NCBI RefSeq assembly: GCF_050920415.1
Contig: NZ_CP169309.1
Origin: Escherichia coli
GTDB lineage: Bacteria; Pseudomonadota; Gammaproteobacteria; Enterobacterales; Enterobacteriaceae
Reading direction: 5' to 3' (one strand)
Length of the DNA: 64,000 bases
The notes under the pieces are model-generated. The model saw nothing but the letters and a program-made list of their open reading frames with translations. It made no database searches and had not been told where the DNA came from. A program made the position numbers and the translations under genes. This document shows positions 18,871 to 36,007 of the stretch, one piece after another; the first letter of the stretch is position 1; each line of letters begins with the position of its first letter.

Positions 18871-19048
18871 GCTTGTAAATTTTCACAGGCTTAATAGGGA
18901 TGGCGGGTAATTCACCTTCATTTAACGCGCTTGCCATACCCAATATTAAACGCGCTTCAGCACCAGTGACTTTTTTGCACCATGCGCCGCCTGTTTTATC
19001 TTCGAATAAGATAACGGCAAACTGATCGTTTATTTCCAGCTTATCCAT
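18848..19048 (-). CDS. hypothetical protein
   Basis: 66-aa ORF whose ATG overlaps the Q-like stop codon (TAATG). Confidence 0.35.
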   Translation of the reverse strand: MDKLEINDQFAVILFEDKTGGAWCKKVTGAEARLILGMASALNEGELPAIPIKPVKIYKRGDDDEA

Positions 19049-19770
19049 TATTCACCCCGTGTTACTCGTTTAATCTCACTTTCCGCGCGGGCCTCTTCTT
19101 TGAATAGCTCAGCTATGGCGTCTTCATAGAAAACCCGGTATTTTTTCCACCATGTTGATCGGCTTACCGGAAAGACAAGCTGGTTAACCGCCTGCCGGAC
19201 AAGATCTACCGGGAAACGCGAGTACCCGCGCCCGCCGCAGTGTTGGCACGTTTTGAATACTGGCATTTCCGCCGCTTCGCTGGCTGCTTTATCCGGTATC
19301 TCGCCGCGACCTTTGCATTGTTTACAATGATTGCGAACCTTTCCATGCCCCTTGCATTTTTTGCAAAGGTGTTTTTCTCCGTAGTCGTCAAACGTAAATT
19401 TATATCCGCCGCACTCCATACAAGTTTTTTCCGTCGCGGCGCTTTGGCAATAATCCCGAAACGCGAAAACGGCAACAAGAATAATAAGATCATTGCGTTG
19501 TTCTTCATTTAATTCCATCACGTATTCGTAATCTTTCGCCATAGCTCTTAAACGCTCTGTAAGTAATACTACGGCCCTGTGTTTTTCGGCTTGCGATAGT
19601 TCCATCTTCCCTAAAAAAGCGCTATATCCAAGCTCTACGCGCGATTGCGCCATACCAGCGGCGGTAAGCGCATCCGTCGTATTAAGTGCATCAGGTGATG
19701 TTCCCCGGCTTTCGTCTGATAATCGCGGTGATTTTGGGAAGTGGAATTTAAGAATGGATTCTAAATTCAT
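19048..19770 (-). CDS. antitermination protein Q-like
   Basis: 240 aa, cysteine-rich zinc-binding region (CMECGG...CKKCKGHGK...CKQCKGRG...CQHCGGRG), position after ninG/rusA as in lambdoid phages. Confidence 0.55.
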   Translation of the reverse strand: MNLESILKFHFPKSPRLSDESRGTSPDALNTTDALTAAGMAQSRVELGYSAFLGKMELSQAEKHRAVVLLTERLRAMAKDYEYVMELNEEQRNDLIILVAVFAFRDYCQSAATEKTCMECGGYKFTFDDYGEKHLCKKCKGHGKVRNHCKQCKGRGEIPDKAASEAAEMPVFKTCQHCGGRGYSRFPVDLVRQAVNQLVFPVSRSTWWKKYRVFYEDAIAELFKEEARAESEIKRVTRGE

Positions 19771-19952
19771 TATTTGCCCTCATAACGTGCCGCCAGCCGT
19801 TTACGATCAGAAATGGATTGCACCAGCTTTCTTTCAAACTCTTTCAGCGCAAGTAATTCGCGCATGTGGAAAGCCTGGATTTGTCTGACCGTCTCTAAAT
19901 CACGCTCGTCGCGCTGAATATCTATTTGCAGATCTTTAACTTCGTTTTTCAT
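19770..19952 (-). CDS. small hypothetical protein
   Basis: 60 aa, charged helical; coupled between rusA and the Q-like gene. Confidence 0.35.
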   Translation of the reverse strand: MKNEVKDLQIDIQRDERDLETVRQIQAFHMRELLALKEFERKLVQSISDRKRLAARYEGK

Positions 19953-20356
19953 TGCTCACCCCACATATTCGTCGCGTATTCGTCAATATCCGGTAGCAGG
20001 TCGCCGCGTTCGCGTACCTTGATAAACAATCGCCCGCCTTTTACCTTCCGGCAGCGTACAATTTTTATTGAGTCGATTTGTCCGTCGTCAGTCCAGAATC
20101 CGGCGTAAGTAAGGCTATCAAAAAGGCATTTGGGGATATTATCCAGATCTCTGATCCGGTTATCCGGCGGCGCGGCATAAATGGCGATTGCCAGTCGGCA
20201 AGATAGGTTAATGTCTAAATTTAATAATTCGATGATGTCTTTTACTTGCTCCCGGTATTCCTTCCCCACTTTGCTGATATAGTGAAAACCGCGCGAATGT
20301 CGGTAATAGCGGTTATTCGATGGCGGGTAAGGCAGGCTAAAAGTATATTCATTCAT
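19949..20356 (-). CDS. rusA: Holliday junction resolvase RusA
   Basis: 135 aa; N-terminal LPYPPSNNRYYRH and downstream RDLDN match the RusA family. Confidence 0.75.
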   Translation of the reverse strand: MNEYTFSLPYPPSNNRYYRHSRGFHYISKVGKEYREQVKDIIELLNLDINLSCRLAIAIYAAPPDNRIRDLDNIPKCLFDSLTYAGFWTDDGQIDSIKIVRCRKVKGGRLFIKVRERGDLLPDIDEYATNMWGEQ

Positions 20357-20958
20357 GCCGCCTTTCTCCTTAAGGCGTCCAATTTTGCCTGATAGATGTT
20401 TATTAGCTCCTTACATTCTGCGATCGTCCATTTGTGCGTATCGTTGTTGTTCTCCAGTGCTACCACCCTGGCGAGGCCAATTTTTCGAATCAGCGCCGGG
20501 CGATACCCTCCGATGTTGCCGTCTAGTGTCTGGTTGCAGTGCCTGCATTGCTTGTGACAATTATCCTCGTTGAAGCGAAGGTGTCCGGCGGCGGCTACCG
20601 TCCTGTAATGGCCTGCATCCCACCCGCATTGCTCACCGTAGTAAGTCCCGCATGATATGCACGGCAATCGCGCGTCACGCTCGCGTATATAAGCGTTAAA
20701 AACGTTTTGCGCCTGTTTAATCCAGTAGCTACGCGGATTTAACTGCTTCCGCTTCCGGTTGCGTTCTTCCCGCTGGCTATCACGGCGTTTCTTCCGTTCC
20801 ATAGCCTTCATAGCCTTCTCACGGTCGCGGCATAGCTGATCAAACTTCAGTTCTTCCAGACATTCATCGCTGCACCACGTTTGATTGTGATATTTAGGCT
20901 CAAAAAAAACGCCGCAGCATTTGCAACGGCGTCTTATGGGTTTTTTAGGGTTCTGCAT
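20353..20958 (-). CDS. ninG: NinG (Rap) recombination protein
   Basis: RSYWIKQAQ...AYIRERD...PCISCG...WDAGHYRT...LRFNE...HKQC closely matches lambda NinG; start at MQNPKK with a GGGGTGG SD. Confidence 0.75.
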   Translation of the reverse strand: MQNPKKPIRRRCKCCGVFFEPKYHNQTWCSDECLEELKFDQLCRDREKAMKAMERKKRRDSQREERNRKRKQLNPRSYWIKQAQNVFNAYIRERDARLPCISCGTYYGEQCGWDAGHYRTVAAAGHLRFNEDNCHKQCRHCNQTLDGNIGGYRPALIRKIGLARVVALENNNDTHKWTIAECKELINIYQAKLDALRRKAA

Positions 20959-20972
20959 AAAAACCACCCCTA

Positions 20973-21149
20973 TTATTTTTGATTCTCTGTTTCGTTCAGC
21001 CTTTCGGCGTGTCCGGCCCTTAGCCGATGATCTAAGCATTCGTTGCACTCGTTACGGCCTCCTTTCTTCGTGCTGCATACATTGCACATTGCACGCATGA
21101 CGCTCTCTCGTTCATAGTCGTCATGCCATTGGTAATCATCAAAAGACAT
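20973..21149 (-). CDS. ninF: NinF-like small zinc-ribbon protein (58 aa, absent from the ORF track)
   Basis: AAGGAGAG SD; ESV(M/E)RA..C..C motifs and length equal to lambda NinF; directly upstream of ninG. Confidence 0.5.
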   Translation of the reverse strand: MSFDDYQWHDDYERESVMRAMCNVCSTKKGGRNECNECLDHRLRAGHAERLNETENQK

Positions 21150-21270
21150 AATGCTCTCTCCTTTTCAGGTGATTTCTACGCATTTCAGCGCTGCCGGATT
21201 TTTAAAGAGCATTTCGTTTGCTTGAAGTATACAAAATGGATGCACCTGAACAAGGCAAAAAGCGCCATTA

Positions 21271-21286
21271 TGTGACCAAAATCACA
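21271..21286. promoter_or_regulatory. CRP-like palindrome TGTGA-N6-TCACA
   Basis: TGTGACCAAAATCACA in the intergenic region upstream of ninF, 8 bp from a GCCATTTTGTAAACTTT element. Confidence 0.4.
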
Positions 21287-21308
21287 CAATGACGCCATTT
21301 TGTAAACT

Positions 21309-22067
21309 TTAGTCCGGTAAAACGCGGTTAAGCGTAGTCCGCGTGATGGCCCGGTCGTTAGCCAGGAATACAGCACGGGCGAAGCCGCGCGGCGTTAGTG
21401 ACCGGATCATCTTTGTTCGCTTTGCCCGGCCTCCGGTTTTCGCCCACCCAGGGTTATCACCAGAGTTAAGATCTACAGGTCTAAAAATCGGCTGTTTAAA
21501 TCCGTTGCCGCACCAGATGCAAGTTTTCTTCGTGTACGCGTCGCGCGCCGGGTAAACATCCGGGAAAGCAGGATGCTTGTCATCTTCCGGCAGATAGCCA
21601 CCGTAAGCGCACGGATTGAAGATAAAATCTGGTTTACGCCATAACGTTGACAGTGCTCCTACCGGATTTTCCACCATCCACGGGACGTTATACATGTCAG
21701 CCAGTGTTTCGACCAGTTTCGCGTTATATGCCGCCTTCACCTGGAAGTCAGGATCTTTTTCACGCTTGCTGGAGAACCAACGAGCGCCGGACACGGCGAG
21801 ATCGTCGCATGGTGGGAAGGCAAAAATAATGTCAGGATCTGGATAAACAGACAATTCAGGGGAGAATATTACCAGGAAATGGCTATCAATCCAGACATTG
21901 ACATATTCAATATTGGGATGAATTACTTTTACTCCGTCATAATCCCCGTGATTAGCGCCGTCATAGTTGAAGCAATAGCACTTATATCCAGCTTCAGCCC
22001 AATCTTTAACGGCGTACCCGCTGCCATCGTAAAGCGACCATACCACCCAATTTTTAAGACTGCTCAT
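21309..22067 (-). CDS. DNA cytosine-5 methyltransferase-like protein (compact, PCD variant)
   Basis: 252 aa with motif I-like LYDGSG, motif IV-like FPPCDDLAVSG (D where C5-MTases have Q), motif VI-like ENPVG. Confidence 0.45.
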   Translation of the reverse strand: MSSLKNWVVWSLYDGSGYAVKDWAEAGYKCYCFNYDGANHGDYDGVKVIHPNIEYVNVWIDSHFLVIFSPELSVYPDPDIIFAFPPCDDLAVSGARWFSSKREKDPDFQVKAAYNAKLVETLADMYNVPWMVENPVGALSTLWRKPDFIFNPCAYGGYLPEDDKHPAFPDVYPARDAYTKKTCIWCGNGFKQPIFRPVDLNSGDNPGWAKTGGRAKRTKMIRSLTPRGFARAVFLANDRAITRTTLNRVLPD

Positions 22068-22573
22068 CTTCTACCCTCAAACGTAAAATAGCGGCGCATG
22101 ATGATAGTAATCACCGTTACCGCTGCCATTTTTGAGATGAATTGCATAGCTGATATTTCAGGCATGAATGCCATAAACGATAGCGTAGGAAAAATTAACG
22201 CATCGCCAATGGCGGACGCTATATTTGCAGGCCAGCGTTTTGAATCGAAATCACCAGGTAAAACCCGGTAAACGCCGCCAGAAATAAGCGCACCGGAAAC
22301 AACCGCGACGAATGACGCGATCGCCACCATCCCGGCGTCGTAATTTATCAGCACCGTGATTGCGCCAGCGGCGGCGCATGTTGTAGCCGACCATTTCAGG
22401 CCGCCGTCATATAACAAGAAGTCACGAATCATCATATTGACGCACACAGCGGCTACCGTGGTGATCGGAATTACCCACGGGCCGCAATGGTTAACAATAA
22501 GATTAATGATCACGAAAACGGCGACATAAACGCAGGCTAATAACCTGTCAATTGTCACCTTTTCCATTTGGAT
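22064..22573 (-). CDS. integral membrane protein (4-5 predicted TM helices)
   Basis: Hydrophobic ORF between the two methyltransferase-like genes; start uncertain. Confidence 0.4.
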   Translation of the reverse strand: MQMEKVTIDRLLACVYVAVFVIINLIVNHCGPWVIPITTVAAVCVNMMIRDFLLYDGGLKWSATTCAAAGAITVLINYDAGMVAIASFVAVVSGALISGGVYRVLPGDFDSKRWPANIASAIGDALIFPTLSFMAFMPEISAMQFISKMAAVTVITIIMRRYFTFEGRR

Positions 22574-23060
22574 CATACCTCTTATCGCGAATAGCTTCTG
22601 ATCTATCAAACTTCACATTAAGCCGATTAGTGGCCTCACCGTTAAACATCACAGTATGGATTGTTTTTCCTGGAATAAGCGACGGATCCGGCCCTGATAA
22701 ATCATCGTAAAGTTTTATCCCTCCGCCAATTGGGAGATCAAAAACAGCTTGTTTCTTCCTTTGTTCTTCCTCACGCTCCGTTAATATTTGTTCAGCTTTT
22801 AGTGCGCTGTAGCTAATCAAATCGATTAACGTATCAGTAGGGTCGCTTCCATTGCTTAAAATGGCCTCTAATCGCGCTTCCTTAAGGCAAATCATTAGAT
22901 CCCATACATCAAGCGGGGTTAAATCTGCTCCCTTCTTAGCGTTGTAAATAGCGGCTATTTTTGGCGCTGATTTTTCCTCTTTTTTGTCGTAGCCGTTTTG
23001 TTTGCCTCTTTGCTCTATTGTTTCCGCTGCAAGTCTTAACAAGTCTGTTGCCTTAGTCAT
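22548..23060 (-). CDS. hypothetical protein
   Basis: Start at MTKATDLL with an AGAGGTG SD; about 170 aa. Confidence 0.35.
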   Translation of the reverse strand: MTKATDLLRLAAETIEQRGKQNGYDKKEEKSAPKIAAIYNAKKGADLTPLDVWDLMICLKEARLEAILSNGSDPTDTLIDLISYSALKAEQILTEREEEQRKKQAVFDLPIGGGIKLYDDLSGPDPSLIPGKTIHTVMFNGEATNRLNVKFDRSEAIRDKRYDPNGKGDN

Positions 23061-23592
23061 TATTCGCACCTCTTGCATATAGCTCTTTACGTGTTATCTG
23101 CGTGAAAATACATTCATGTCTGCACCGTGGATGCCAGATTAAAAACAAGCTCCCCTTATTATTCCCGCTCGCTGGCTTACCAGTAGCGGCATTAATAAAC
23201 GCCAGCCGCCCGCGCGTAATTAATCGGCATTCGTTTGCCGTCTCCACGCCGTTCATAAACCAGCCAACAGAAATGTCGGCTGGCAATAACATTACGCATC
23301 CGATATGGTTTCGGTTGTGTTCAAGCGCCGCTTTATCAACGAATGGCCCCGGATTAGAATATGGTGGATTAAGCCAGACATACTCACCAGGCATTGCCAC
23401 CGCTCCCCACGGATAATGCAACGTGTCCATTTCTTCGGTTATATATCGCGGAACTAATGCGTTTGCTTTGTTTGCCGCCACGTCCGCGACGAATTCGAAT
23501 TCCCGATCCATTCCTCTAAAAACTGGTTTTGGCGTTTGCCATAAGTCTTTTATTTCTTTCGGCGTATGGCTGCCGCCGTAATCATTTTTCAT
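23053..23592 (-). CDS. DNA N6-adenine methyltransferase (phage Dam-like orphan MTase)
   Basis: 179 aa with the catalytic NPPY motif (WLNPPYS) and Dam-family size. Confidence 0.6.
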   Translation of the reverse strand: MKNDYGGSHTPKEIKDLWQTPKPVFRGMDREFEFVADVAANKANALVPRYITEEMDTLHYPWGAVAMPGEYVWLNPPYSNPGPFVDKAALEHNRNHIGCVMLLPADISVGWFMNGVETANECRLITRGRLAFINAATGKPASGNNKGSLFLIWHPRCRHECIFTQITRKELYARGANND

Positions 23593-23601
23593 TACGCCCC
23601 C

Positions 23602-23835
23602 TTAGAAATAATCCTGATCTGTTCCCCAGCGGTTATTCAGATACCCCACCAACCACACAAAACGCTCAATACTGATTAGCGGGGCGACCTTGCGATAATG
23701 CTTGTCGAGTATCAGCCGCGTGGCTTTATCGCTGTAGCCGTTCTTTTCTACCTCCGCTTTGCAGGCCGAAAGCGCGGCGCGTGCGGCAGTCTTTACGGCG
23801 TTAAATTGCGGCTCAGACATATTAAATAAAGCCAT
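23602..23835 (-). CDS. hypothetical protein
   Basis: ORF in the array; start codon uncertain. Confidence 0.3.
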   Translation of the reverse strand: MALFNMSEPQFNAVKTAARAALSACKAEVEKNGYSDKATRLILDKHYRKVAPLISIERFVWLVGYLNNRWGTDQDYF

Positions 23836-23839
23836 AGGA

Positions 23840-24091
23840 TCACCATGTATCATCCCAATCCGGCGCGGCAGTCCAGCAAAAACCAATGAATGCGCTCACA
23901 GCCAATAAAGCGCGGGCTGCAAAAAGAATATTCCCAATGTCGTTAAATTCAGGCAGCGACCACGTAATAAACATAGCCCCAAGCATGACAACACCGATAA
24001 CAGTCAGGGCCGCAAGGAAAACAAAAAGCGTAGCCAAAAGCCACGCCCCCAACCAGTTAAAAAAGCTCTTAAGCATTTTAAACGTCCTCAA
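23840..24091 (-). CDS. small membrane protein
   Basis: 83 aa, two to three hydrophobic helices. Confidence 0.4.
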   Translation of the reverse strand: MRTFKMLKSFFNWLGAWLLATLFVFLAALTVIGVVMLGAMFITWSLPEFNDIGNILFAARALLAVSAFIGFCWTAAPDWDDTW

Positions 24092-24281
24092 TTACCCCGC
24101 CTTTCACGCGTTCTTTAATATCCCATACGTGAGGCTTGCATATTTCTTGATAATAGCGATCCGGCCTGCTGCCGAAATACCATTTACCATCCATATAAAA
24201 ATAAACGCCAGAAAAATTACCAGGTGCGGCCTTTGTTGCTGATTCTGGAATTTTCCATTCTCTGTAATTTTTAAATCGCAT
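24078..24281 (-). CDS. hypothetical protein, paralog of the adjacent gene
   Basis: 67 aa; G(N/G)FSG(V/C)Y(F/Y)Y motif shared with 24271-24465. Confidence 0.35.
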   Translation of the reverse strand: MRFKNYREWKIPESATKAAPGNFSGVYFYMDGKWYFGSRPDRYYQEICKPHVWDIKERVKGGVIEDV

Positions 24282-24465
24282 GTAATGACACCTCCCTGAT
24301 AAGTTTGCTTAACTCAATGTTTATTAATCTGCGGAAATGTTGCTTTCCATCAGCAAAGTGCACCAAGTAAATATCACCAACAATGTTATAGTAGTAACAG
24401 CCGCTAAAACCAATTCCTGCCAATTTAGCGTTATCAGGCAACGTATAACCGCCAACATTTTTCAT
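24271..24465 (-). CDS. hypothetical protein, paralog of the adjacent gene
   Basis: 64 aa; GAGGTGA SD. Confidence 0.35.
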   Translation of the reverse strand: MKNVGGYTLPDNAKLAGIGFSGCYYYNIVGDIYLVHFADGKQHFRRLINIELSKLIREVSLHAI

Positions 24466-24468
24466 ATA

Positions 24469-24561
24469 TCACCTCATATGGTATTCAATAAACCACCTGA
24501 TAAACAGGCATAAGGCAATAAAACCCCAGCAACAGCACATATAAAACAATGTGTCGTCCAT
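24469..24561 (-). CDS. small hydrophobic peptide (30 aa, MDDTLFYMCCCWGFIALCLFIRWFIEYHMR)
   Basis: ATG 3 nt after the upstream stop; TGAGG SD; single TM helix; not in the ORF track. Confidence 0.35.
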   Translation of the reverse strand: MDDTLFYMCCCWGFIALCLFIRWFIEYHMR

Positions 24562-24563
24562 AA

Positions 24564-24782
24564 TTAAGCCTCAATAACACCGTAATCAAACGTGCCTAAA
24601 TACCGTTCGATACTTACAACCTCAATACCATCAATGCACCGTTTCCACACAGACACCTGGCTTTCATTTTCTCTGAAGTGCATATTAGAAAGCACTTCAT
24701 CGGCTGGATAGCCTTTCCCAGCGGCGTAGGCATCGTGACCTACGCCACCTTCTACGCAATAAAGCATGAATTCGCGTTCCAT
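24564..24782 (-). CDS. hypothetical protein
   Basis: 72 aa; GGAGG SD. Confidence 0.4.
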   Translation of the reverse strand: MEREFMLYCVEGGVGHDAYAAGKGYPADEVLSNMHFRENESQVSVWKRCIDGIEVVSIERYLGTFDYGVIEA

Positions 24783-24863
24783 TTTTGCTTCCTCCGCACC
24801 GTAAACCTTTTGATTTCGGATTACAAAACGGATATGCGATTACAATACATAATGTATATTCAT

Positions 24864-24879
24864 GTGATCGGAATCACTC
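24864..24879. promoter_or_regulatory. CRP-like palindrome TGTGA-N6-TCACT
   Basis: TGTGATCGGAATCACT in the intergenic region upstream of gene 24564-24782, flanked by an ATACAT-A-ATGTAT palindrome. Confidence 0.35.
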
Positions 24880-24881
24880 GG

Positions 24882-25501
24882 TTAATGCAGTACACGTTTT
24901 CCCTGTTCAGGCATCGGCTGTGCGTTTTTCCTTGCATCGTTAAGCGTAGCGATAGCTGCCTGTACTCCCAAAACACTAGCGCGCATATCATCGCCAACAA
25001 AATTACCGTAAAGCACAGGAATAAAAGCCTTAATGTTATCTTCTTCGTGTCCTTCCTCAATAAATTTCTGCAACATCTTAACTTCAAATATTTTTTCATC
25101 ATTCCGCGAATAGAATACAAAGAAGCGCTACCCATTCTGTTTTCATCAATAGGGAAGATAACAGCACTACCAAAAGCCATAGGATCAACATCTTCAGGCA
25201 CTGGAACGCGTCCGAATTCTTCCTCCATGCGTTTTACAAAAGAAAGGCAGAATACATAACGCGCCACCGTTGTTTTTTCTTCCAGGCTTAAAGACACGTA
25301 ATCGCGGATTGACGCATCCATCATAATATCAACAATATGTAGCGCCAGGTTTAAATCACCGTCATACACGCCAGCATCCATATCTTTTAATACTTCGTGA
25401 TAATCCTTAGTTACCACTTCGTGAAAGCTCGCGTCTTCTGTGTAGCGAGTGATTAACATGCCTTCGCTGCCGAGTGAATAAGCTGTTTTGATGTTGTTCA
25501 T
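24882..25501 (-). CDS. hypothetical protein with an apparent -1 frameshift at an A6 run (programmed shift or pseudogene)
   Basis: N-terminal ~135 aa in one frame; a protein-like C-terminal 64-aa ORF in the -1 frame ends just before the intergenic region; frames join near A6 at 25091-25096. Confidence 0.35.
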
Positions 25502-25514
25502 GATATTTATCCTT

Positions 25515-28965: not shown

Positions 28966-29057
28966 TCCATTTTGTATACTTTTTTAAAACATTTTGTATG
29001 CTATTGATATTTAAGCAATAAATAACGCTTCCTGTTTACGTTTTGGTGTTTTCCGGG

Positions 29058-29082: not shown

Positions 29083-29088
29083 TAATGT

Positions 29089-29736
29089 TTATGGCAGGTT
29101 TACGATCTTCGCATCAACCACCACACCTATGATTTTTGATTCTGGATTCATAGGGATTGGCGGATACAGAGGGTTGAGCGAACGTAAAAGCCTTTGACCT
29201 CCATCAATAATCAACTGTTTAAACGTCGGTATCTGCCCTTCCTCAAGCTGGGCTATAACCAGTTTGCCGTCAATAGCTGGCGCGTGCGGATCGACAAGTA
29301 TCATCGTCCCCGCTGGTATACTCAATCCTTGCGGCGCGTTCATTGATTCGCCTTTAGCTACCAGCCAATAACTATCATCTGAACAAATAACGCTAGTCGT
29401 AACGTGTGGTAATGTTGATCGCCTTGTATCATCCATATTGTTTACTGTGTCCTTCCAGTCAACAACCGGGTAACTGCCTAAATCACGCTGCGGCGCTCCC
29501 GGTAACGTGTTAGAAACAGAATCATCAATGACCATTCCATCATGTGTAACAGTGAATTGCCGACGACCAAGCGCCCGCATAATCCGCGCAATATCTTCAA
29601 GATTTGGCTCGCGGCGACCGTTAAGCCAGTGTGACAGGCCGCCTTTAGTTATCCCCATGAGATCCGCGAGTGAATCCTGGCTCATGCCTTGCGCTCGCAT
29701 GAGCTGCTTTGCTAAGTCATACCATTTTGTTTTCAT
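29089..29736 (-). CDS. CI-type prophage repressor (HTH + S24 LexA-like peptidase domain)
   Basis: 215 aa; N-terminal XRE-type HTH (QDSLADLMGITKGGLSHWLNGRR), C-terminal AKGESM serine and downstream Lys of S24 self-cleaving repressors. Confidence 0.75.
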   Translation of the reverse strand: MKTKWYDLAKQLMRAQGMSQDSLADLMGITKGGLSHWLNGRREPNLEDIARIMRALGRRQFTVTHDGMVIDDSVSNTLPGAPQRDLGSYPVVDWKDTVNNMDDTRRSTLPHVTTSVICSDDSYWLVAKGESMNAPQGLSIPAGTMILVDPHAPAIDGKLVIAQLEEGQIPTFKQLIIDGGQRLLRSLNPLYPPIPMNPESKIIGVVVDAKIVNLP

Positions 29737-29795
29737 GTCGCTACCCTATAACCTCAAAAAGTTTGATACAAGTCACAAAATGTATTTTTCAAGTC

Positions 29796-29823
29796 TTGAC
29801 CTAAAAACGCCATTCTGTAAACT
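29796..29823 (+). promoter_or_regulatory. pR-like sigma-70 promoter overlapping an operator-like motif
   Basis: TTGACC, 16-bp spacer, TAAACT; GCCATTCTGTAAACTT overlaps the spacer and -10. Confidence 0.45.
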
Positions 29824-29900
29824 TGCAGACAAGGTAGGGCCATAGTTGCAAAGACGCAAGAAAAAAGATAACGGAATAGCACAAAAAGGCGCATACCTTA

Positions 29901-29933
29901 TGCTCTTTAATAATCTGGTGTCGCTGCGAAGCG
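29901..29933 (+). promoter_or_regulatory. nutR-like site (boxA TGCTCTTTAATAA + boxB hairpin)
   Basis: TGCTCTTTAATAA, then TCTGGTGT, then CGCT-GCGAA-AGCG in the pR leader. Confidence 0.5.
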
Positions 29934-30041
29934 AAAAACAAATATCACGCAACGGCGGGATCTGTTAAGCGGTCAATCACTGCTACCTAATACTAATGGG
30001 ATACCCGCCCGCGCGTTCACTCTAACATAGGAGAAAACACA

Positions 30042-30296
30042 ATGAGTATGCACATGATGAATGAAGTATGGAAATTAAAACTTAACAGCCCTATTCAAAA
30101 ACTTGTCTTAATGGCGATGGCTGAAAAGGCAGATAACAAAGGACGGGTACATGTATCACGCAAAGAAGTAGCCGCAATGTGTGAACTTCCTGTTTATACG
30201 GTACATGATGCCTTCGCCGCGTTAATGGATAAAGGATTTGTTTGTCGTCTTGATGCATTCAGTGATGTCTATGTAGTGATGTTGCCGGAGGAATGA
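30042..30296 (+). CDS. winged-HTH DNA-binding protein (Cro-position, replication-associated HTH)
   Basis: 84 aa; first gene of the rightward operon with an AGGAG SD; directly precedes the replication initiator gene. Confidence 0.4.
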   Translation: MSMHMMNEVWKLKLNSPIQKLVLMAMAEKADNKGRVHVSRKEVAAMCELPVYTVHDAFAALMDKGFVCRLDAFSDVYVVMLPEE

Positions 30297-30299
30297 TCC

Positions 30300-31400
30300 A
30301 TGAAGTGGTTTAAGCATGATAGCGATGCGAACCGCGATGAAAAGCTCCAAAACGTTTTGCTTGATTATGGTCTGGAAGGATACGGGCTTTACTGGTATTG
30401 CATCGAGTTAATAGCTTATGAAGTAGATCAACATAATCTGACATTCGAACTAAAACACGATGCGAGAATTATTGCCCGTAACGTCGGATCAACTCCGAAA
30501 CGTGTAGAAGAAATGATGAGATACTTCATCGAAGTTGGCTTGTTCGATTGCTCGCATGGCGTTGTAAGATGCCTGTCGTTAGCAAAAAGACTTGATCAAT
30601 CAATGGCTTCATCAAAAAGCGAATTTAGGGAAGCAATTAAAAGGCTAAACGTCAAAAAAAATAAAAAGTTAGATAATCCTTTAGTGGAAGTAAATAATTC
30701 ACCAGATACAGAAAAAGAAAAAGAAAAACCATGGCACAACCATGATGCAGCCATGGCACAACCATGTCATAGCCATGGATTAGAAGTAGAAGTAGAAGAA
30801 GAAATAGAAAAAGATATATACACTTCGTGTATTAGCGAAAATGGACAAAAAACGGTCAATCAGGACGGTGTAAGCGAAGCTGCCTTGCGTTGCCTGGCTT
30901 TCTACAACGAAAAGGCAGGATGCAAGTGTCGTGATACTAAGCCATTCATCGAACTACTGACAGAAACAAAAACACGTAAGGCATATACGGAGGAAGAGAT
31001 CACATTAGTAATTGAGTGGGCTTTAACCCAATGGCGTAGCCGTGGTGGAGTACCTAAGCCTATCAACATTTGCCGGGTAACTAAGTTTGATGGGTATCTG
31101 GCTGATGCTGAACAATGGCGCAAGTTATCAGCTACTGTAAACGCTGCCGACGTGGTGGGAGAATTTAACAGCACGTTTGACGGCCTGTTACCACCTGCCG
31201 AACTGGATCGGGATCTTGAACGCAAGATCTATGCGTTCACTGACTACCTGAAAGACAAAAGTATTAACGGCTTTGTCGCCTACTTCGAAACGTTCAAAAA
31301 CACGGCTTCAGATTTTTACTTCGGCAATGGCTTCACTGCGACACTTGATTTTCTGCTTAAACCAAAAACGCTACGTGATACACGCGCTGGCGTTCTTTGA
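30300..31400 (+). CDS. phage replication initiation / replisome organiser-like protein
   Basis: 366 aa; N-terminal MKWFKHDSDANRDEKL segment typical of phage replisome organisers; acidic repeat-containing middle; position upstream of the helicase. Confidence 0.4.
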   Translation: MKWFKHDSDANRDEKLQNVLLDYGLEGYGLYWYCIELIAYEVDQHNLTFELKHDARIIARNVGSTPKRVEEMMRYFIEVGLFDCSHGVVRCLSLAKRLDQSMASSKSEFREAIKRLNVKKNKKLDNPLVEVNNSPDTEKEKEKPWHNHDAAMAQPCHSHGLEVEVEEEIEKDIYTSCISENGQKTVNQDGVSEAALRCLAFYNEKAGCKCRDTKPFIELLTETKTRKAYTEEEITLVIEWALTQWRSRGGVPKPINICRVTKFDGYLADAEQWRKLSATVNAADVVGEFNSTFDGLLPPAELDRDLERKIYAFTDYLKDKSINGFVAYFETFKNTASDFYFGNGFTATLDFLLKPKTLRDTRAGVL

Positions 31401-31533
31401 CCAACCACGATCCGCAAAAATCCAAAATTACCCATAAAACAACCTCACCAGCGAGCTAAATAGCATATGCTGCTACACTTGCTTACCTTTTTGCGATTAG
31501 CTCGTTATAGAGCGTTACAGAGAGGATTTTAAA

Positions 31534-31635
31534 ATGGACGGTAAACACGTTTTCGCCCTGGCCTTTGCCATCGCTGCGGCAATCGCTGTTAACGTCGCTT
31601 TGTTCGGCGGTTTGTACCTTCTCGTTAATCCATAA
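31534..31635 (+). CDS. small hydrophobic peptide (33 aa, MDGKHVFALAFAIAAAIAVNVALFGGLYLLVNP)
   Basis: GAGAGGA SD 7 nt upstream; single TM helix; in the intergenic region after the initiator gene. Confidence 0.4.
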   Translation: MDGKHVFALAFAIAAAIAVNVALFGGLYLLVNP

Positions 31636-31796
31636 CCTACCTACCAGTCTGTAAATCGAAAATTAGCCACCTGATAGCGCCTCTGGCGCAAAAAAGACAC
31701 TGCACCCTTACAAGTGGGTTACGCGGTGGAATTTTGCGTTGTAGCGCGTTTTACGGAAAATAAATATACATTCTGTAAACATGAGGAAGTAACATT

Positions 31797-32915
31797 ATGT
31801 CGCAAAGAAAGATCAGCGATGAGGAATTAATCGCTGAGTACAAGAAGGGGAAAACTTACAAGCAAATAGCCGAAGAATATGGAATGGCAAAACGCAACGT
31901 CGAACGACTGGGCGCGCGGTTGGCGAAACGCGGTTTAATATCCACGCGTCGCGCGCCGGGTTTTGGCGTCAATGGTGAGTCTTTGCTCGTTGATAAAGAT
32001 GGCAATGTAATCATGCGCTGGATTAAAACAGCCCGTGACCGTGATGAAATGGAAAGGCTAATGCAAGCGGCTTGCGATGCTTTCACGGAAGAAATACCCC
32101 GAGCGGAGGCCGTGCCAGTGCCGGAAATTGATTTTCAAAAAAGTCTGGCCCTTTATCCGGTATTCGATTTGCATATAGGGGCGCTTGCTCATAAAGCTGA
32201 GTGCGGCGAAAGCTACGACACCGGGATCGCTGAACGCGTGCTAAATGATTTCTTTGACTACGCGGTAGGCGCTGCGCCAATGTCTGAAAAGGCTGTTTTG
32301 CTTCTCGGCGGTGATGTGCTTCACACTGACGGCCTGTTACCAGTGACGCCATCAAGTAATCACGTTTTAGATTGTGATTCACGCTACGCAAAACTGGTTT
32401 ATGTGGCGATCCGGTCGGTCCGGCGTGCGGTCGGGAAGATGTTACTAAATCATAAGGATGTCGAGATCCAGGTATTATCCGGTAATCACGACCAATCAGG
32501 TATGATCTGGCTACGTGCTGCGCTTGCGGCTTTTTACGAAGATGAGCCGCGTGTGACTGTTGACGTGTCACCTGCCATTGTCCACCACACACAGTACGGC
32601 AAAACATTCCTTGCTTACCACCACGGGCACACTATCAAAAAGCCAGAAAATTTACTTTCTGCCTGCGTTTCTGACTGGCGGGAGGATTTCGGCAAGTCGT
32701 CGGCGGTTTACGCTCATTGCGGGCACTGGCATCATCAACGGCTGATTGAATCATCGTTAGGCGTTGTCGAGTATCACGGCACATTAGCTGGCAAAGACGC
32801 TTATTCAACGAATGGCGGCTGGCGGTCGCGGAGGCTGGCGGCGGTAATAATTTACAGTCCTGATCACGGGGAGATCGGGCGCTTTGTTTATTACCCTGAA
32901 TATTCCATTTTGTAA
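31797..32915 (+). CDS. HTH-domain / calcineurin-like metallophosphoesterase fusion protein
   Basis: N-terminal HTH (KTYKQIAEEYGMAKRNVERL); C-terminal phosphoesterase motifs DLH, GGDVLH, GNHD, GHWHH; GAGGAAG SD. Confidence 0.5.
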   Translation: MSQRKISDEELIAEYKKGKTYKQIAEEYGMAKRNVERLGARLAKRGLISTRRAPGFGVNGESLLVDKDGNVIMRWIKTARDRDEMERLMQAACDAFTEEIPRAEAVPVPEIDFQKSLALYPVFDLHIGALAHKAECGESYDTGIAERVLNDFFDYAVGAAPMSEKAVLLLGGDVLHTDGLLPVTPSSNHVLDCDSRYAKLVYVAIRSVRRAVGKMLLNHKDVEIQVLSGNHDQSGMIWLRAALAAFYEDEPRVTVDVSPAIVHHTQYGKTFLAYHHGHTIKKPENLLSACVSDWREDFGKSSAVYAHCGHWHHQRLIESSLGVVEYHGTLAGKDAYSTNGGWRSRRLAAVIIYSPDHGEIGRFVYYPEYSIL

Positions 32916-32933
32916 ACCTGAGGAAATACCATA

Positions 32934-34355
32934 ATGGTGACTGAGCAAGTAAACTCATTACGCCAGGAACGGGAAGCTGCTGTGATAGGTGGACTCCTGT
33001 TAGGCGGGCTTACTCCTAACGCGCAAGATGTTCTTGCTACGCTCGATCCTGAAGTCTTCACCATTCCACTATATAAACGAGCGTTTGAGATCATCCGGGC
33101 GCAAGCCAGAAACAGAAACCTTATTGACGCGCTGATGGTCGGTGATGAAATCGGTAACGAAAATTTTGTCCCGCTAATGCAAACTGCGCGATCGTGTCCA
33201 TCTGCCGCCAACCTGAAGGGGTACGCCGCGCTATTGCAGGAGGAATATCAGCGGCGGCAAATGCTGGAACTAATGGACGATATACGCTACAACCTGGAAA
33301 CCGGGACACTTGAATCTGTCAGGGAGACGATGAAATATTTTGATTCCCGGTATTCAAAATTAAAGGTAACAAAAGATCAGATTATCCCGGTGCTGTTGCG
33401 CGATGCTGTCCAGGAATACACGGAAGTGCTAAGTAAACGCATGGAGTGTGGCGTGAACTCTGACAACATCAAAACAGGGATTGACCCACTCGACGAAATG
33501 TTAGGCGGCATTAACGCTACTGATCTGGTGCTTATAGCTGGACGCCCAGGGTCTGGTAAATCTGCGTTGGCGTTGGCAATTGCCCGCGCGGCGGCTGAAC
33601 GTCCATACCCTGGCAGCGAAGGTCAACGGGTCGGCGTTTTGCTGTTCACGCTTGAAATGTCGCTCGATCAGATGACTGAACGAGCTATCGCTGGCGCTGG
33701 GAATTTATCAACGGATTGCCTACGTAATCCGGTAAAACTGGATGACGAAGGATGGGCGCACGTTGCCCAGGGGATGAGCGCCCTTGCCGATCTCGATGTG
33801 TGGATTGTTGACGCATCGCAGTTAACGGTTGAGGAAATACGCGCCACCGTCGAACGGATGAAACAGGACCATCCTAATCTTGGAATGGTGATGATTGACT
33901 ACATCGGGTTAATGAAACTGGCTAAGGCCGAACGTCATGATCTCGCCGTAGGGCAATTGTCGTGGTCATTGAAAATGATGGCGAAAGAGTTGCGCGTGCC
34001 AGTGGCGGCGCTGGCGCAATTATCCCGCCGCGTTGAAGAACGACCGAACAAGCGCCCGAACAATTCTGATCTGCGTGATTCCGGTAATCTTGAACAAGAC
34101 GCAGACCGGATCATCATGGTCTACCGCGACGGCTACTACAACGAACAATCAGTTGCCCGCGAATACATGGAGATCATCGTTTCAAAAAACCGTCACGGGA
34201 AAACGGGGACTGTTTACCAGCGGTTTGACGATAACGGCAACATCATTCCATGCGACCAGGCTCGCGCGGCGTCCGCCTGCATCCAGTCAATGCAACAACG
34301 TCCGGCAGCAAGCCGATTCTCCCCACGAAATAACCAGAATAACTCATCCTTTTAA
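32934..34355 (+). CDS. replicative DNA helicase (DnaB family)
   Basis: 473 aa; Walker A GRPGSGKSALAL, Walker B VMIDYIGLM, C-terminal LAQLSR...RPNNSDLRDSG...ADRIIMVYRD motifs. Confidence 0.8.
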   Translation: MVTEQVNSLRQEREAAVIGGLLLGGLTPNAQDVLATLDPEVFTIPLYKRAFEIIRAQARNRNLIDALMVGDEIGNENFVPLMQTARSCPSAANLKGYAALLQEEYQRRQMLELMDDIRYNLETGTLESVRETMKYFDSRYSKLKVTKDQIIPVLLRDAVQEYTEVLSKRMECGVNSDNIKTGIDPLDEMLGGINATDLVLIAGRPGSGKSALALAIARAAAERPYPGSEGQRVGVLLFTLEMSLDQMTERAIAGAGNLSTDCLRNPVKLDDEGWAHVAQGMSALADLDVWIVDASQLTVEEIRATVERMKQDHPNLGMVMIDYIGLMKLAKAERHDLAVGQLSWSLKMMAKELRVPVAALAQLSRRVEERPNKRPNNSDLRDSGNLEQDADRIIMVYRDGYYNEQSVAREYMEIIVSKNRHGKTGTVYQRFDDNGNIIPCDQARAASACIQSMQQRPAASRFSPRNNQNNSSF

Positions 34356-34434
34356 TTAACTTGAGCAAACGGCTTACCGGAAAGTTGATCTCTTTCTGGT
34401 GGCTGTTTTCGCGCTTAAAACGAGGCGAAAAACA

Positions 34435-34992
34435 ATGAGCATTGAACTTGAAACAAAAGTTATCAATATCCTTGAACTGGACGGCATCGCAACAATGCAC
34501 CAGCTACGCCAGAAAACCGGATTATCAGCGGAATATGACGAAGCCGGATGTTTGCCTGAGACAATTAAACACTTGATTGATACTGGTATTGTCGAGCGTG
34601 TATATACATATTTCGGACCGCGCCGCAGATTATTGGGGTATCGAATTAAATATTTGTATGCACAACGTCGTGATCGTGTGGCGGCGTTATTTAGTGACTA
34701 CAGCGTTAAGAAGCGTATGCGTGACATTAGCGCGGAAACTGGTATCCCGTGGAATTACCTGTCGCGCACGCTGCGTTTAATGGTACTTGATGAAACGCTT
34801 TGCATAGACACCAATAAACACGGCCTTAACTTTTACTCACTGTTTAAACCTGGTCGCTTTGGTCACGCTAATGATCTCGCGTTTGATTTTGACAGCCGCC
34901 TGAATGAATACCGGAAAAATAACGGCCTGTTACCGGATAAACCAGTATTTGAGATCGAAAAACTTAACGGTGAAACGGGGTTAGAATTATGA
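34435..34992 (+). CDS. hypothetical protein (N-terminal winged-helix-like)
   Basis: About 185 aa starting MSIELETK; unknown function. Confidence 0.35.
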   Translation: MSIELETKVINILELDGIATMHQLRQKTGLSAEYDEAGCLPETIKHLIDTGIVERVYTYFGPRRRLLGYRIKYLYAQRRDRVAALFSDYSVKKRMRDISAETGIPWNYLSRTLRLMVLDETLCIDTNKHGLNFYSLFKPGRFGHANDLAFDFDSRLNEYRKNNGLLPDKPVFEIEKLNGETGLEL

Positions 34993-35195
34993 GACGGGTA
35001 ATCTTTTATTCAGTTGAAACGTTTGTCGACGATACGCGCGTTTATTATCCGTGGGAAGTATACGACGCAAAGGTGTATACACCGCCACTGATGCGGAAAT
35101 ATAAACACGTAAAATTTAACCGGGTTTTTGTGCCAATGCGCGATGCATTGCGGGCGCTGCGCGGGGAATTACGAAACACAATGCGGATTGTGTAA
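34989..35195 (+). CDS. hypothetical protein
   Basis: 68 aa, 4-nt overlap with the upstream gene. Confidence 0.35.
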   Translation: MRRVIFYSVETFVDDTRVYYPWEVYDAKVYTPPLMRKYKHVKFNRVFVPMRDALRALRGELRNTMRIV

Positions 35196-35206
35196 GGAGG
35201 GGATTA

Positions 35207-35403
35207 TGAACAAGGATTTAGAATTGACCGTGGAGGATTTAAGCACGATTGCGGAATACATGCGCGGCGATGATCCTGATAAACCTGTCACTGTTGACAT
35301 GAAATATTTAAAAGGCGCTTACATGACAAGCTCGCGGCTAATTTCTTTGCAGGCGATTATGTATGCGCGGGCGCAATGGAAAAATAGCAACGGTGTATTA
35401 TGA
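35207..35403 (+). CDS. hypothetical protein
   Basis: 65 aa starting MNKDLELT with an AGGAGG SD; overlaps the ninB start. Confidence 0.4.
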
Positions 35404-35831
35404 GGCAAATTAGATTTGAAGTAGTTAATGACGCCGTGAAAGAAAATGCTATCAGGCAGATAAGGGAAATACAGCCTGATAGCAAAAGCCCGCTGATAAT
35501 TACCATCCAGGAGAAAACCCGCTCACTAAGCCAAAATGCGTTGCTTTGGGCGCTGCTAACCGACATTAGCGATCAGGTTAATTGGTACGGCAAGAAGCTG
35601 TCTCCGGAAGACTGGAAAGCGGTATTCACTGCCGGACTTAAGAAATATGGCGTCGTCCCTAACCTGGATAAATCCGGCTTCGTTGTATTGGGAACGTCTA
35701 CAAGCCGGATGAGCAAATCGGAATTCAGTGAACTAATCGAATTAATTTACTCGTTCGGTGCTGAACATAATGTCCAATGGTCGGGTGATACGAAATTAAA
35801 TGAGGAATTCATAAAACGCTGGGGGCAATAA
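35400..35831 (+). CDS. ninB: NinB recombination protein
   Basis: 143 aa; IQEKTRSLSQNALLWALL...VPNLDKSGFVVLGTSTSRM closely parallels lambda NinB. Confidence 0.75.
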   Translation: MRQIRFEVVNDAVKENAIRQIREIQPDSKSPLIITIQEKTRSLSQNALLWALLTDISDQVNWYGKKLSPEDWKAVFTAGLKKYGVVPNLDKSGFVVLGTSTSRMSKSEFSELIELIYSFGAEHNVQWSGDTKLNEEFIKRWGQ

Positions 35832-36007
35832 TGGCGCGTTATTATATGGCTAAACCTACCGGAATTTTGTATAAGGTTGATGGCGAATACGTTTTTTATT
35901 TTCACAACCAGGCGCGAGAGTGGCGATTGTGTCACGCGCACTTTCAGCACGAAATAGAAAACCACCCTGAATATTTTATTAAGGTTGACAATGTAACGGT
36001 GGCGTAA
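35831..36007 (+). CDS. hypothetical protein (58 aa, not in the ORF track)
   Basis: ATG overlaps the ninB stop (TAATG). Confidence 0.35.
   Translation: MARYYMAKPTGILYKVDGEYVFYFHNQAREWRLCHAHFQHEIENHPEYFIKVDNVTVA

Follow-up and report, generated by a model that had tools for sequence, protein, structure and literature searches.

Very probably, positions 1 to about 38214 of the window (the whole stretch analysed, 64,000 nt of the Escherichia coli contig NZ_CP169309.1) belong to one prophage from the mEp021-like (mEpimmI) group of temperate siphophages of E. coli, and its 'split nin' layout, with nin homologues on both early operons, is the normal one for that group. A preliminary description of this DNA had treated the layout as a non-canonical lambdoid arrangement; it is not peculiar to this genome but the fixed architecture of a group classed as non-lambdoid by experiment (PMC11893012). 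This group was published as "Nus-dependent non-lambdoid", and 48 genomes with a conserved architecture have been described for it (PMC11893012). That paper cites Kameyama 1999 for the group not recombining with lambda.

Extent and relatives of the prophage

The window covers the right-hand part of the prophage, roughly 38 kb, inserted next to pgrR, within the mppA region; the left end (about 16 kb) falls outside. Seven free-living phages are collinear with it (mEp021, mEp010, mEp013, mEp044, mEp515, mEp554 and MagusPhagus), and its nucleotide identity to free phages and E. coli prophages is 86–92%. Between 19000 and 37000, the six mEp phages each match at a single place in their record, with 86–88% nucleotide identity over 87–92% of the length, and the collinearity carries on across 1–19000 within the same records. 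The same region was found, as one chromosomal place, in 34 of 5426 complete E. coli genomes. From 16197 to 38372, three collinear blocks align with a prophage of E. coli O157:H7 LSU61, which shares the integrase type and host flank. Since the best database match reaches only 92.6% identity, the prophage represents a distinct member of the group.

Gene order and strands agree with both the GenBank annotation of mEp021, a plaque-forming phage with a 54.7-kb genome, and the PGAP annotation of LSU61. The agreement with mEp021 and the mEpimmI group takes in the entire early region and as much of the late region as the window includes, and terminators t1, t4 and t5, like the three nut sites, are common to mEp021 and the prophage. 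They differ in SSB (58% identical), in the first gene of the replication operon, which has no clear homologue in mEp021 gp14, and in the small ORFs between Q and the holin gene, which span about 5.9 kb here and about 2 kb in mEp021. The layout reaches further than these close relatives: the most divergent N-like homologues on long contigs (67% identical) keep the order CI, N-like, ERF, SSB, Dam, NinG, RusA, and at one of two such loci the Q gene is reached, the other contig stopping inside RusA.

The minus-strand unit: from the repressor to lysis

The early part of this unit and the adjoining repressor gene comprise the following features.

29089–29736, minus strand: CI-like repressor with HTH and S24 peptidase domains (PHROG 4, E 1e-41)
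29066–29083, minus strand: terminator t1, directly after the repressor gene and identical in mEp021
28937–28965, minus strand: best sigma-70 promoter match, TTGACT-17-TATATT (promoter scan, 10/12 positions)
28299–28589, minus strand: N-like antiterminator, homologue of mEp021 Gp17 (PHROG 271, E 1e-11)
27508–28149, minus strand: Erf (PHROG 155)
27089–27508, minus strand: SSB (PHROG 44)
24024–24050, minus strand: terminator-like hairpin at the t3 position, in a variable accessory region (terminator scan)
21309–23592, minus strand: accessory block with a C5 cytosine methyltransferase, a membrane protein, a DUF6378-like ORF and a Dam methylase (PHROG 757 and 111; LSU61 annotation)

The repressor is 97.7% identical to Rep021 of mEp021, which has been tested and confers immunity (PMC11893012), and 33–39% identical to its lambdoid counterparts. 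Terminator t1 is among those listed as experimentally shown (PMC11893012). The promoter match is conserved in mEp021 and is a candidate for the early promoter of the N-Erf-SSB-nin-Q operon. The N-like protein is 94.8% identical to mEp021 gp17; its Pfam match is weak (i-E 0.011), and its Arg-rich motif (R17, R19, R20, R21, R24) conserves the arginines published for Gp17 (PMC11893012). Erf is 55–58% identical to Erf of HK97, HK022 and P22-like phages. The surroundings of the hairpin at 24024–24050 showed no conservation with mEp021 in the alignment.

Further along the same strand are the distal nin homologues, Q and the start of the lysis cassette.

21261–21296, minus strand: terminator t4 (mEp021 TERM_4), a 16-pair hairpin followed by a T run, aligned with and annotated in mEp021
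20973–21149, minus strand: 'NinF', a 58-aa Cys-rich ORF (weak label)
20353–21048, minus strand: NinG/Rap (PHROG 171, E 5e-90)
19949–20356, minus strand: RusA-type Holliday junction resolvase (PHROG 34, E 6e-44)
19048–19770, minus strand: 240-aa Q-like protein, a late antiterminator in the family of lambda Q (PHROG 127, E 2e-78)
13160–13178, minus strand: intrinsic terminator t5 (mEp021 TERM_5), just upstream of the holin gene (terminator scan and alignment)
12935–13135, minus strand: holin gene, first of the lysis cassette downstream of Q, homologous to the mEp021 class II holin gp46 (ORF list)

The gene identities, strands and layout given in the preliminary description were correct, with NinB after the replication genes and the NinF-like gene, NinG, RusA and Q on the strand of the N-like gene, Erf and SSB. 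Only its NinF label is weak: the ORF matches the NinF-like gp67 of ES18 (43% identity over 35 aa, E 0.003) and its mEp021 homologue is labelled 'putative NinF', but a Pfam search gave no NinF match and its family, PHROG 30170, has no known function. NinG is 52–53% identical to NinG of lambda and ES18, and its true start probably lies near 20958, as in the PGAP model of the LSU61 prophage. RusA is 93% identical to mEp021 gp36. The Q-like protein, 95% identical to mEp021 gp37, contains two Pfam PF03589 Antiterm domains and a zinc-finger motif; its identity to lambda Q is 33.6% over 238 aa, and 34–38% for lambda and ES18 Q together. Terminator t5 is also listed as experimentally shown (PMC11893012). 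The roughly 125 bp in which it sits are nearly identical to mEp021 and may form a late-control region; where the late promoter lies is likewise presumptive.

The plus-strand unit and the integrase end

Replication genes and NinB are transcribed in the opposite direction, toward the integrase gene.

30042–34355, plus strand: replication operon (PHROG matches; LSU61 annotation), which also encodes a 372-aa exonuclease-like protein
30042–30296, plus strand: 84-aa winged-HTH protein, not Cro-like, first gene of the operon
30300–31400, plus strand: replication initiator
32934–34355, plus strand: DnaB-type helicase
35400–35831, plus strand: recombination mediator NinB/Orf, encoded at the operon's distal end (PHROG 72, E 7e-44)
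36664–36897, plus strand: 77-aa HTH protein, last gene of the unit (PHROG 4745 'DNA binding protein', E 8e-9)
36837–38057, minus strand: tyrosine integrase gene, read from the att end toward the interior (PHROG 1, E 2e-66)

Pfam yields only weak MarR/HTH matches for the first gene. NinB is 97% identical to mEp021 gp04 and 51% to NinB of lambda and ES18. The gene for the 77-aa HTH protein overlaps the 3' end of the convergent int gene; its product has only weak Pfam matches, and may be an excisionase. The integrase is 47.5% identical to that of mEp021. This end aligns collinearly (91% nucleotide identity) with the LSU61 prophage, the sole type III integrase member of the published set, in which four integrase types occur across the group (PMC11893012). 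The match to the host flank starts at about 38214.

nut sites and the route to Q

A boxA-plus-spacer search of the window returned exactly three matches to GCTCWTTAANAATCYGG, against 0.01 expected.

29902–29934, plus strand: nutL-like site, preceding the replication operon and conserved in mEp021
28645–28681, minus strand: nutR1-like site before the N-like gene, with boxA GCTCATTAA, spacer and a 5-bp hairpin, identical in mEp021
21178–21210, minus strand: nutR2-like site between t4 and NinF, with boxA GCTCTTTAA, spacer and a small hairpin

All three sit at the published positions of mEp021 nutL, nutR1 and nutR2 (PMC11893012), and the 61 bp directly before NinF are 100% identical to mEp021. Folding places a small hairpin after each site, but these are not significantly more stable than those of shuffled sequence (z −0.1 to −1.2); the nut assignments rest on sequence match and position. 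In PMC11893012, mEp021 Gp17 is reported to act on nutR1, nutR2 and nutL.

In the proposed regulatory scheme, two early transcription units flank the CI-like repressor. Genome replication would be the task of the one on the plus strand (nutL, HTH, replication initiator, helicase, NinB and small HTH), whose end faces the integrase gene. The minus-strand unit would start at a promoter just downstream of t1, pass nutR1, then the N-like gene with Erf and SSB, the accessory and methylase genes, t4 and nutR2, and reach the NinF-like gene, NinG, RusA and Q; from Q it would go on, along that strand, into a small-gene array, t5, the lysis genes and the structural genes. With host Nus factors, the N-like protein would let RNA polymerase read through terminators, and Q would therefore be a delayed-early product from the far end of N's own operon, which in turn would switch on the late genes. 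That N-antiterminated transcription reaches Q had been proposed from the letters; this fits the published description of the group, Q being downstream of the N-like gene in the same transcription unit, and the two nut-like sites on the Q strand match mEp021 nutR1 and nutR2. By this reasoning, Q of the prophage is presumably N-dependent.

Comparison with lambda and ES18

Like lambda, the prophage has divergent early units with a CI-type repressor between them, antitermination of the N type at nut sites with boxA and boxB, a lambda-family Q, and NinB together with the replication genes on the unit that diverges from cI; in lambda, NinG is on that unit too. It differs in that the NinF-like gene, NinG, RusA, Q, lysis and structural genes come after N and the recombination genes, whereas in lambda they follow the replication genes; the integrase gene comes after the replication operon and reads inward; there are three nut sites, not two; and no Cro-like or CII-like gene was recognised in the prophage. 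Proteins compared between the two are 33–53% identical.

With ES18 and P22-type phages it shares an N, Erf, SSB and anti-RecBCD operon in the same transcriptional order, the NinB-NinF-NinG set, and a gp23/ES18 gp73-type Q, the closest outside the mEpimmI group (35–38% identity). In ES18, however, Q and the complete set of nin genes come after the replication genes, N/Erf/SSB are on the other strand, and the N operon ends with int-xis; relative to ES18, the two distal ends are exchanged. The departure from the lambda/P22-type layout was thus described correctly, the lambda and ES18 annotations placing ninB, ninF, ninG and Q after the replication genes on one strand. Formally, and only as a description, one early-region inversion plus a flipped integrase converts one order into the other.

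Alternative explanations of the gene order

It is very improbable that a canonical lambdoid prophage recently underwent inversion or recombination in this strain alone. One inversion, from the recombination genes through ninB, does turn the lambda/ES18 map into the observed order, and as a formal description the 'inversion or modular recombination' proposed earlier is valid. A single inversion leaves the integrase orientation unexplained, and nothing indicates a recent event: lambda and ES18 homologues are only 29–53% identical, and across lambdoid phages in general the shared proteins are 29–58% identical. Seven free phages sequenced independently, 34 complete chromosomes and the surroundings of N-like homologues only 67% identical all show this order, which speaks against a strain-specific event, and the collinearity with relatives refutes that reading. 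The same comparison, which the preliminary description had proposed as a check, bears on a faulty assembly or a tandem pair of prophages with separate regulatory circuits. The unusual order and the absence of the left prophage end from the window are what could suggest these, and their probability is negligible, collinearity with the seven phages and 34 chromosomes excluding them. Moreover, integrase, CI-like repressor, replication module, Q and lysis cassette each occur once in the window, and plaque-forming mEp021 has the same order. The joint at 21150–21310 lies inside a continuous 17.7-kb LSU61 alignment and is 95% identical to mEp021; that at 36000–36900 is flanked on both sides by collinear LSU61 matches, and its ORFs occur in mEp021 in the same order. 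The sole part near the joints that does not align to LSU61 is a diverged stretch of about 200 bp (36007–36212).

How the mEpimmI layout itself arose can be addressed tentatively. Possibly, though doubtfully, the early region of a lambda/P22-like ancestor was inverted once, long ago, from the recombination genes through ninB; the inversion would then have become fixed in mEpimmI, with the integrase module replaced later. This view concerns origin only and is compatible with assignment to the mEpimmI group. The N-Erf-SSB order is that of the pL operon of ES18 and P22-type phages, HTH-replication-helicase-NinB corresponds to the proximal and NinF-NinG-Q-lysis to the distal pR operon, one signed inversion on a circular map reproduces the observed order, and integrase modules vary in the group (47.5% identity to mEp021; four types). 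Against it, genomes with an intermediate order were not found, none of the comparisons made here showed a repeat or other scar at either breakpoint, and nutL and nutR2 have only boxA and the spacer in common. Alternatively, and with the same doubt, unrelated temperate phages might have recombined, illegitimately or through short homologies, into a mosaic with a P22-like N/Erf/SSB operon placed before a nin-Q-late module and a replication/NinB module before an integrase. Identity to lambdoid counterparts is uneven (Erf 55–58%, NinB and NinG 51–53%, Q 34–38%, CI 33–39%), accessory regions and the integrase end vary inside the group, and nutR2 lies exactly at the joint before NinF, as if a nut site had come with, or been recruited to, a module boundary; the objections to the inversion hold here too, however, high-identity donors are absent, and the final layout is already present in all 48 published genomes (PMC11893012) and every homologue seen. 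For both origins, 29–58% identity is too deep to tell inversion from stepwise module assembly. The layout was already known, as the conserved, published architecture of the mEp021 (mEpimmI) group.

Gene Content and Order

Genes were identified from the ORF map and from profile searches (PHROG, Pfam) of the window, and these bear out the gene names and strands of the preliminary description, with the exception of the NinF label.

Genes identified in the window (coordinates, strand, product; by profile search unless indicated otherwise)
19048-19770, minus, Q-like antiterminator (PHROG 127, E 2e-78; zinc-finger motif and two Pfam PF03589 domains)
19949-20356, minus, RusA
20353-21048, minus, NinG
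20973-21149, minus, 'NinF', 58 aa (weak label)
27089-27508, minus, SSB
27508-28149, minus, Erf
28299-28589, minus, N-like protein (PHROG 271, E 1e-11)
29089-29736, minus, CI-like repressor with HTH and S24 domains
30042-30296, plus, winged-HTH protein, 84 aa
30300-31400, plus, replication initiator
32934-34355, plus, DnaB-type helicase
35400-35831, plus, NinB
36664-36897, plus, HTH protein, 77 aa
36837-38057, minus, tyrosine integrase, facing the end of the plus-strand operon

The Q-like protein can be placed by its sequence in the lambda-type Q antiterminator family (Pfam PF03589, the two domains scoring E 3e-18 and 5e-10), and is 33.6% identical to lambda Q (238/240 aa, E 2e-40). The NinF label is weak: the ORF at 20973-21149 did not match the NinF profile PF05810 in Pfam and gave only a weak zf-CHY match, and its similarity to the NinF-like gp67 of ES18, a P22-type phage, is marginal (35 residues), though its mEp021 homologue is annotated as NinF as well. 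No NCBIfam family scored over the cut-off for Q, the NinF-like, N-like and two small HTH proteins, or the replication proteins. Pfam returned only weak HTH matches for the 77-aa and 84-aa proteins, and for this reason we do not name them Xis or Cro. Rfam and tRNA scans of the whole window found nothing.

Similarity to mEp021-like Phages

Window positions 19000-37000 matched phages mEp010, mEp013, mEp021, mEp044, mEp515 and mEp554, all of the mEpimmI group of mEp021-like E. coli phages, at 86-88% nucleotide identity over 87-92% of the length and at one place per record. Positions 1-19000 are likewise collinear in the mEp phage records, running into the lysis, terminase, head and tail genes, so that both halves of the prophage have a single collinear place each in mEpimmI records (86-89% identity over 72-92%). 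Among 5426 complete E. coli genomes, 34 carry the 19000-37000 region, each at one chromosomal place. The closest match is a prophage of E. coli O157:H7 LSU61 (~92%, 92.6% identity), which aligns to 16197-38372 in three collinear blocks with gaps of ~20 and ~200 bases. Host DNA (the ycj/tyrR region) starts at ~38214, and the window therefore holds ~38 kb of one prophage, whose left end lies outside it.

A gene-by-gene comparison with mEp021 was collinear. The GenBank annotation of that phage runs integrase, HTH, NinB, helicase, replication protein, HTH, repressor, gp17, Erf, SSB, methylases, NinF, NinG, resolvase, Q, small genes and holin, with the same strands and order as the window, and the PGAP annotation of LSU61 agrees. 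The early region is 85-97% identical to mEp021 apart from SSB, a 214-aa ORF (36023-36667) and the 77-aa HTH protein, which are only 57-60% identical to their counterparts; such proteins inside an otherwise similar region point to allelic module exchange within the group.

The preliminary description had suspected two joints, 21150-21310 and 36000-36900, and had called for alignment with related elements. This gave the same order in LSU61 and in mEp021, an isolated phage with a 54.7-kb genome, and covered both joints. The first lies within an unbroken 17.7-kb LSU61 alignment and is 95% identical to mEp021. At the second, LSU61 matches are collinear on either side, the sole unaligned part being a diverged ~200 bp at 36007-36212, and the surrounding ORFs form the same set in the same order in mEp021. 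The alternative of two tandem elements finds no support in a window where the integrase, the repressor, the replication module, Q and the lysis cassette each occur once. To the extent that sequences can be compared, misassembly and tandem elements are both excluded, and the check clears a suspected misassembly.

Regulatory Sites and Group Membership

Exactly three matches to the pattern GCTCWTTAANAATCYGG, which covers boxA and the spacer, were found in the 64 kb, where 0.01 were expected. Each match is followed by a short hairpin, and all three are kept in the mEp021 alignments.

Nut-like sites, promoter and terminators (coordinates, strand, feature)
29902, plus, nutL-like site, between repressor and replication operon
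29083-29066, minus, terminator t1, immediately after the repressor gene
28965-28937, minus, promoter TTGACT-17-TATATT, best promoter match of the region
28681, minus, nutR1-like site, directly upstream of the N-like gene
24050-24024, minus, hairpin among the accessory genes after Erf and SSB
21296-21261, minus, terminator t4, followed by nutR2
21210, minus, nutR2-like site, between the methyltransferase block and NinF
13178-13160, minus, terminator t5, before the holin gene

In mEp021, nutL lies upstream of the repressor gene, between it and the HTH gene, nutR1 before gp17 and nutR2 after the methyltransferase block (PMC11893012), and the three sites of the window occupy the positions published for these. 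Gp17, the mEp021 N-like protein, is reported to act on all three (PMC11893012). The idea that nutL and nutR2 are the duplicated scar of an inversion was rejected, as by eye they have boxA and spacer alone in common. Of the other mEp021 terminators, the t2 region is well conserved but gave no clear hairpin in the scan, and the t3 region is not conserved, the window having its own hairpin at 24024-24050. A further terminator-like hairpin with an eight-T run (20910-20928, minus) lies downstream of nutR2, where NinF and NinG overlap; were it functional, polymerase would get past this terminator to Q only when loaded at nutR2 or nutR1.

The mEpimmI phages are described as 'Nus-dependent non-lambdoid' coliphages, with 48 genomes of conserved architecture and 50 core genes (PMC11893012). 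They are defined by an immunity group I repressor of the type of Rep021, the mEp021 repressor, ~96% similar across the group, and by a Gp17 N-like antiterminator with conserved arginines 17, 19, 20 and 24, as well as by reliance on host Nus factors and by exclusion through Rep021; Rep021 itself has been shown to confer immunity (PMC11893012). The repressor of the window is 97.7% identical to the mEp021 repressor region over 215 aa, and is by sequence of immunity group I, Rep021 type. The N-like protein, MSVTIMYGKCDSKLNARERRRIKRE, is 94.8% identical to mEp021 gp17 and has R17, R19, R20, R21 and R24 in an arginine-rich motif. All of the features of the group that can be judged from sequence are present, namely similarity and synteny, repressor type, Gp17 motif and three nut sites. 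The prophage adds one more member to a known group and is closest to the LSU61 prophage, at ~92% identity.

The integrase region (36837-38372) is collinear with the LSU61 prophage at 91% nucleotide identity, and the integrase itself shares only 47.5% identity with its mEp021 counterpart. In the published set only LSU61 has a type III integrase, with mppA as its integration site (PMC11893012); the window prophage, which shares its integrase and host flank, would be the second example of this type. Of 5426 complete 'E. coli' genomes, only 7 match the host flank (38214-58000; pgrR side, ycj genes, tyrR) at 99% identity or more, and most match it at 90-95%; we therefore place the host in a divergent Escherichia lineage. 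MFDS1022581, in which the flank is 100% identical, is absent from the 34 genomes that match the prophage region.

Comparison with Lambdoid Phages and Origin of the Layout

The canonical order used as reference in the preliminary description agrees with the records of lambda and ES18, in which the replication genes are followed by all of ninB, ninF, ninG and Q, with N and the recombination genes on the other strand.

Gene order with the late genes drawn rightward (strand in brackets)
Lambda and ES18: int(-) xis(-) recombination(-) N(-) cI(-) cro(+) replication(+) ninB(+) ninF-ninG-Q(+) late(+)
Window: int(+) HTH(-) ninB(-) replication(-) HTH(-) cI(+) N(+) Erf-SSB(+) ninF-ninG-rusA-Q(+) late(+)

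The lambdoid order (int-xis-recombination-N-cI-cro-replication-nin-Q-lysis-structural) is not found in the prophage, where Erf and SSB are followed, on the strand of CI and N, by NinG, RusA, Q and the late genes, and the integrase is beyond NinB. Because of this, and because the group is reported not to recombine with lambda, 'non-canonical lambdoid' is the wrong label: according to Kameyama 1999, as cited in PMC11893012, immunity group I phages gave no viable progeny in co-infection with lambda and did not hybridize to lambda DNA. Judged by homology only, CI-type immunity and N and Q antitermination would be as in lambdoid phages.

The layout had been attributed to inversion or modular recombination. 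This is fair as a formal description, since one inversion, from the recombination genes through ninB, converts the lambda/ES18 order into that of the window, integrase orientation excepted; there is no sign of a recent event. Compared with lambda and ES18, CI is 33-39% identical, NinB 51%, NinG 52-53%, Q 34-38% and SSB 29%; Erf is 55-58% identical to the HK97, HK022 and P22-like Erf proteins, and the nearest Q outside the mEpimmI group is 36.6% identical. In the phage collection, the N-like protein was found only in the seven mEpimmI phage records. Searches with it gave no distant relatives of canonical layout: in a large protein collection, the two long-contig homologues examined that lie furthest from it in sequence (67% identical) have the mEp021 order of CI, N-like, ERF, SSB, Dam, NinG and RusA, with Q reached in one of the two, the other contig ending inside RusA. 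As the group records and these homologues share one order, the layout is fixed across the known range of the lineage. The layout may have arisen by one ancient inversion or, about as plausibly, by mosaic assembly.

Proposed Transcription of Q and the Late Genes

Along the minus strand the order is t1, promoter, nutR1, N-like gene, Erf, SSB, accessory genes, t4, nutR2, NinF-like gene, NinG, RusA, Q, small ORFs, t5 and holin. With the regulatory elements of mEp021 in place in the window, the mechanism is most likely lambda-like in logic and laid out differently. The TTGACT-17-TATATT sequence would be the operon promoter, and early minus-strand transcription, antiterminated by N, would pass t3 and t4 to Q, which would stand at the far end of N's own operon; Q would then activate the late genes further down the minus strand. 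We infer both that Q depends on N in this prophage and where the late promoter lies, and the functions assigned to the N-like protein and repressor are those of Gp17 and Rep021, taken by analogy from the mEp021 literature (PMC11893012). That Q is reached by N-antiterminated transcription, as the preliminary description had supposed, fits the mEp021 account of an N-type protein acting on nut sites en route to Q (PMC11893012). The phage would work much like a lambdoid one despite its layout.

Lambda-type Q antiterminators are characterised by a late promoter beside the Q gene, with a Q-binding element, a promoter-proximal pause and a terminator after it. In the window Q is followed by no intergenic space, as the next ORF begins at its stop codon, and a promoter scan directly after Q and before the holin gene gave no convincing -35/-10 pair. 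The ~125 bp before the holin start codon (13135-13260, minus), t5 included, are nearly identical to mEp021, and the next ORF upstream shows much greater divergence in that alignment. A stretch of ~105 bp with t5 before the holin gene, 5.9 kb downstream of Q, is the only strongly conserved non-coding candidate, and we regard this pre-holin region as a candidate late promoter and Q-utilisation region. The Q-to-holin stretch (13135-19048, minus) is a hypervariable accessory region on the path from Q to the late genes. It has ~25 small ORFs in ~5.9 kb, compared to 8 ORFs in ~2 kb in mEp021; several encode small acidic paralogues (e.g., 13241-13417 and 13414-13596), and 17726-19000 has no megablast match in mEp021 and is present in LSU61.

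A repeated motif, ACAAAATG(G/T), with the extended consensus AAGTWTACAAAATGG, is strongly over-represented; as WACAAAATGK it has 11 copies, with ~1 expected.

Sites of the repeated motif (coordinates)
28967-28976
28989-28998
29722-29731
29774-29783
28289-28298
21230-21239
21295-21304
32905-32914
15774-15783
15800-15809

The -35 of the N-operon promoter directly adjoins two direct copies 22 bp apart, t4 stands between the members of an inverted pair just before nutR2, and one copy is in the repressor/HTH intergenic region. The positions are the same in mEp021 and LSU61, and the motif is absent from the early regions of lambda and ES18. It may be an operator or the binding site of another regulator. 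No Cro-like ORF of credible size occurs in the 306-bp repressor/HTH intergenic region, and no recognisable Cro-like gene in 29737-30296; the 84-aa protein encoded at 30042-30296 is similar to the winged-HTH at the N terminus of replication initiators (PHROG 4617, E 3e-21) and has no clear homology to mEp021 gp14. Operators and a Cro equivalent were not identified in PMC11893012, and the primary Gp17 literature may cover part of this.

A single early promoter precedes N, Q and all of the late genes, which share one strand, and nutR2, a dedicated second nut site, directly adjoins the nin-Q block. Polymerase modified by N and loaded at nutR2 might itself read past t5 into the lysis and structural genes, which would leave the Q step partly redundant or would turn the timing into a single linear N-to-Q-to-late cascade; the repeated motif, at the early promoter and on both sides of t4, would then mark an undescribed regulator that gates the hand-over. 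We consider this improbable.

Significance

The layout noticed in the preliminary description is confirmed as an observation, and its interpretation is supported in part. It has little weight as a discovery, as the layout is the published architecture of mEp021 and its relatives and the regulatory consequence drawn from it is already described for them. For the mEpimmI group, the comparison draws attention to the repressor operators, a Cro equivalent and the place of the Q-dependent late promoter. Phages of the mEp021 type are common in the human gut, and the element can now be named: among mEpimmI prophages it would be the second to carry a type III integrase, here in the mppA region of a divergent Escherichia lineage.
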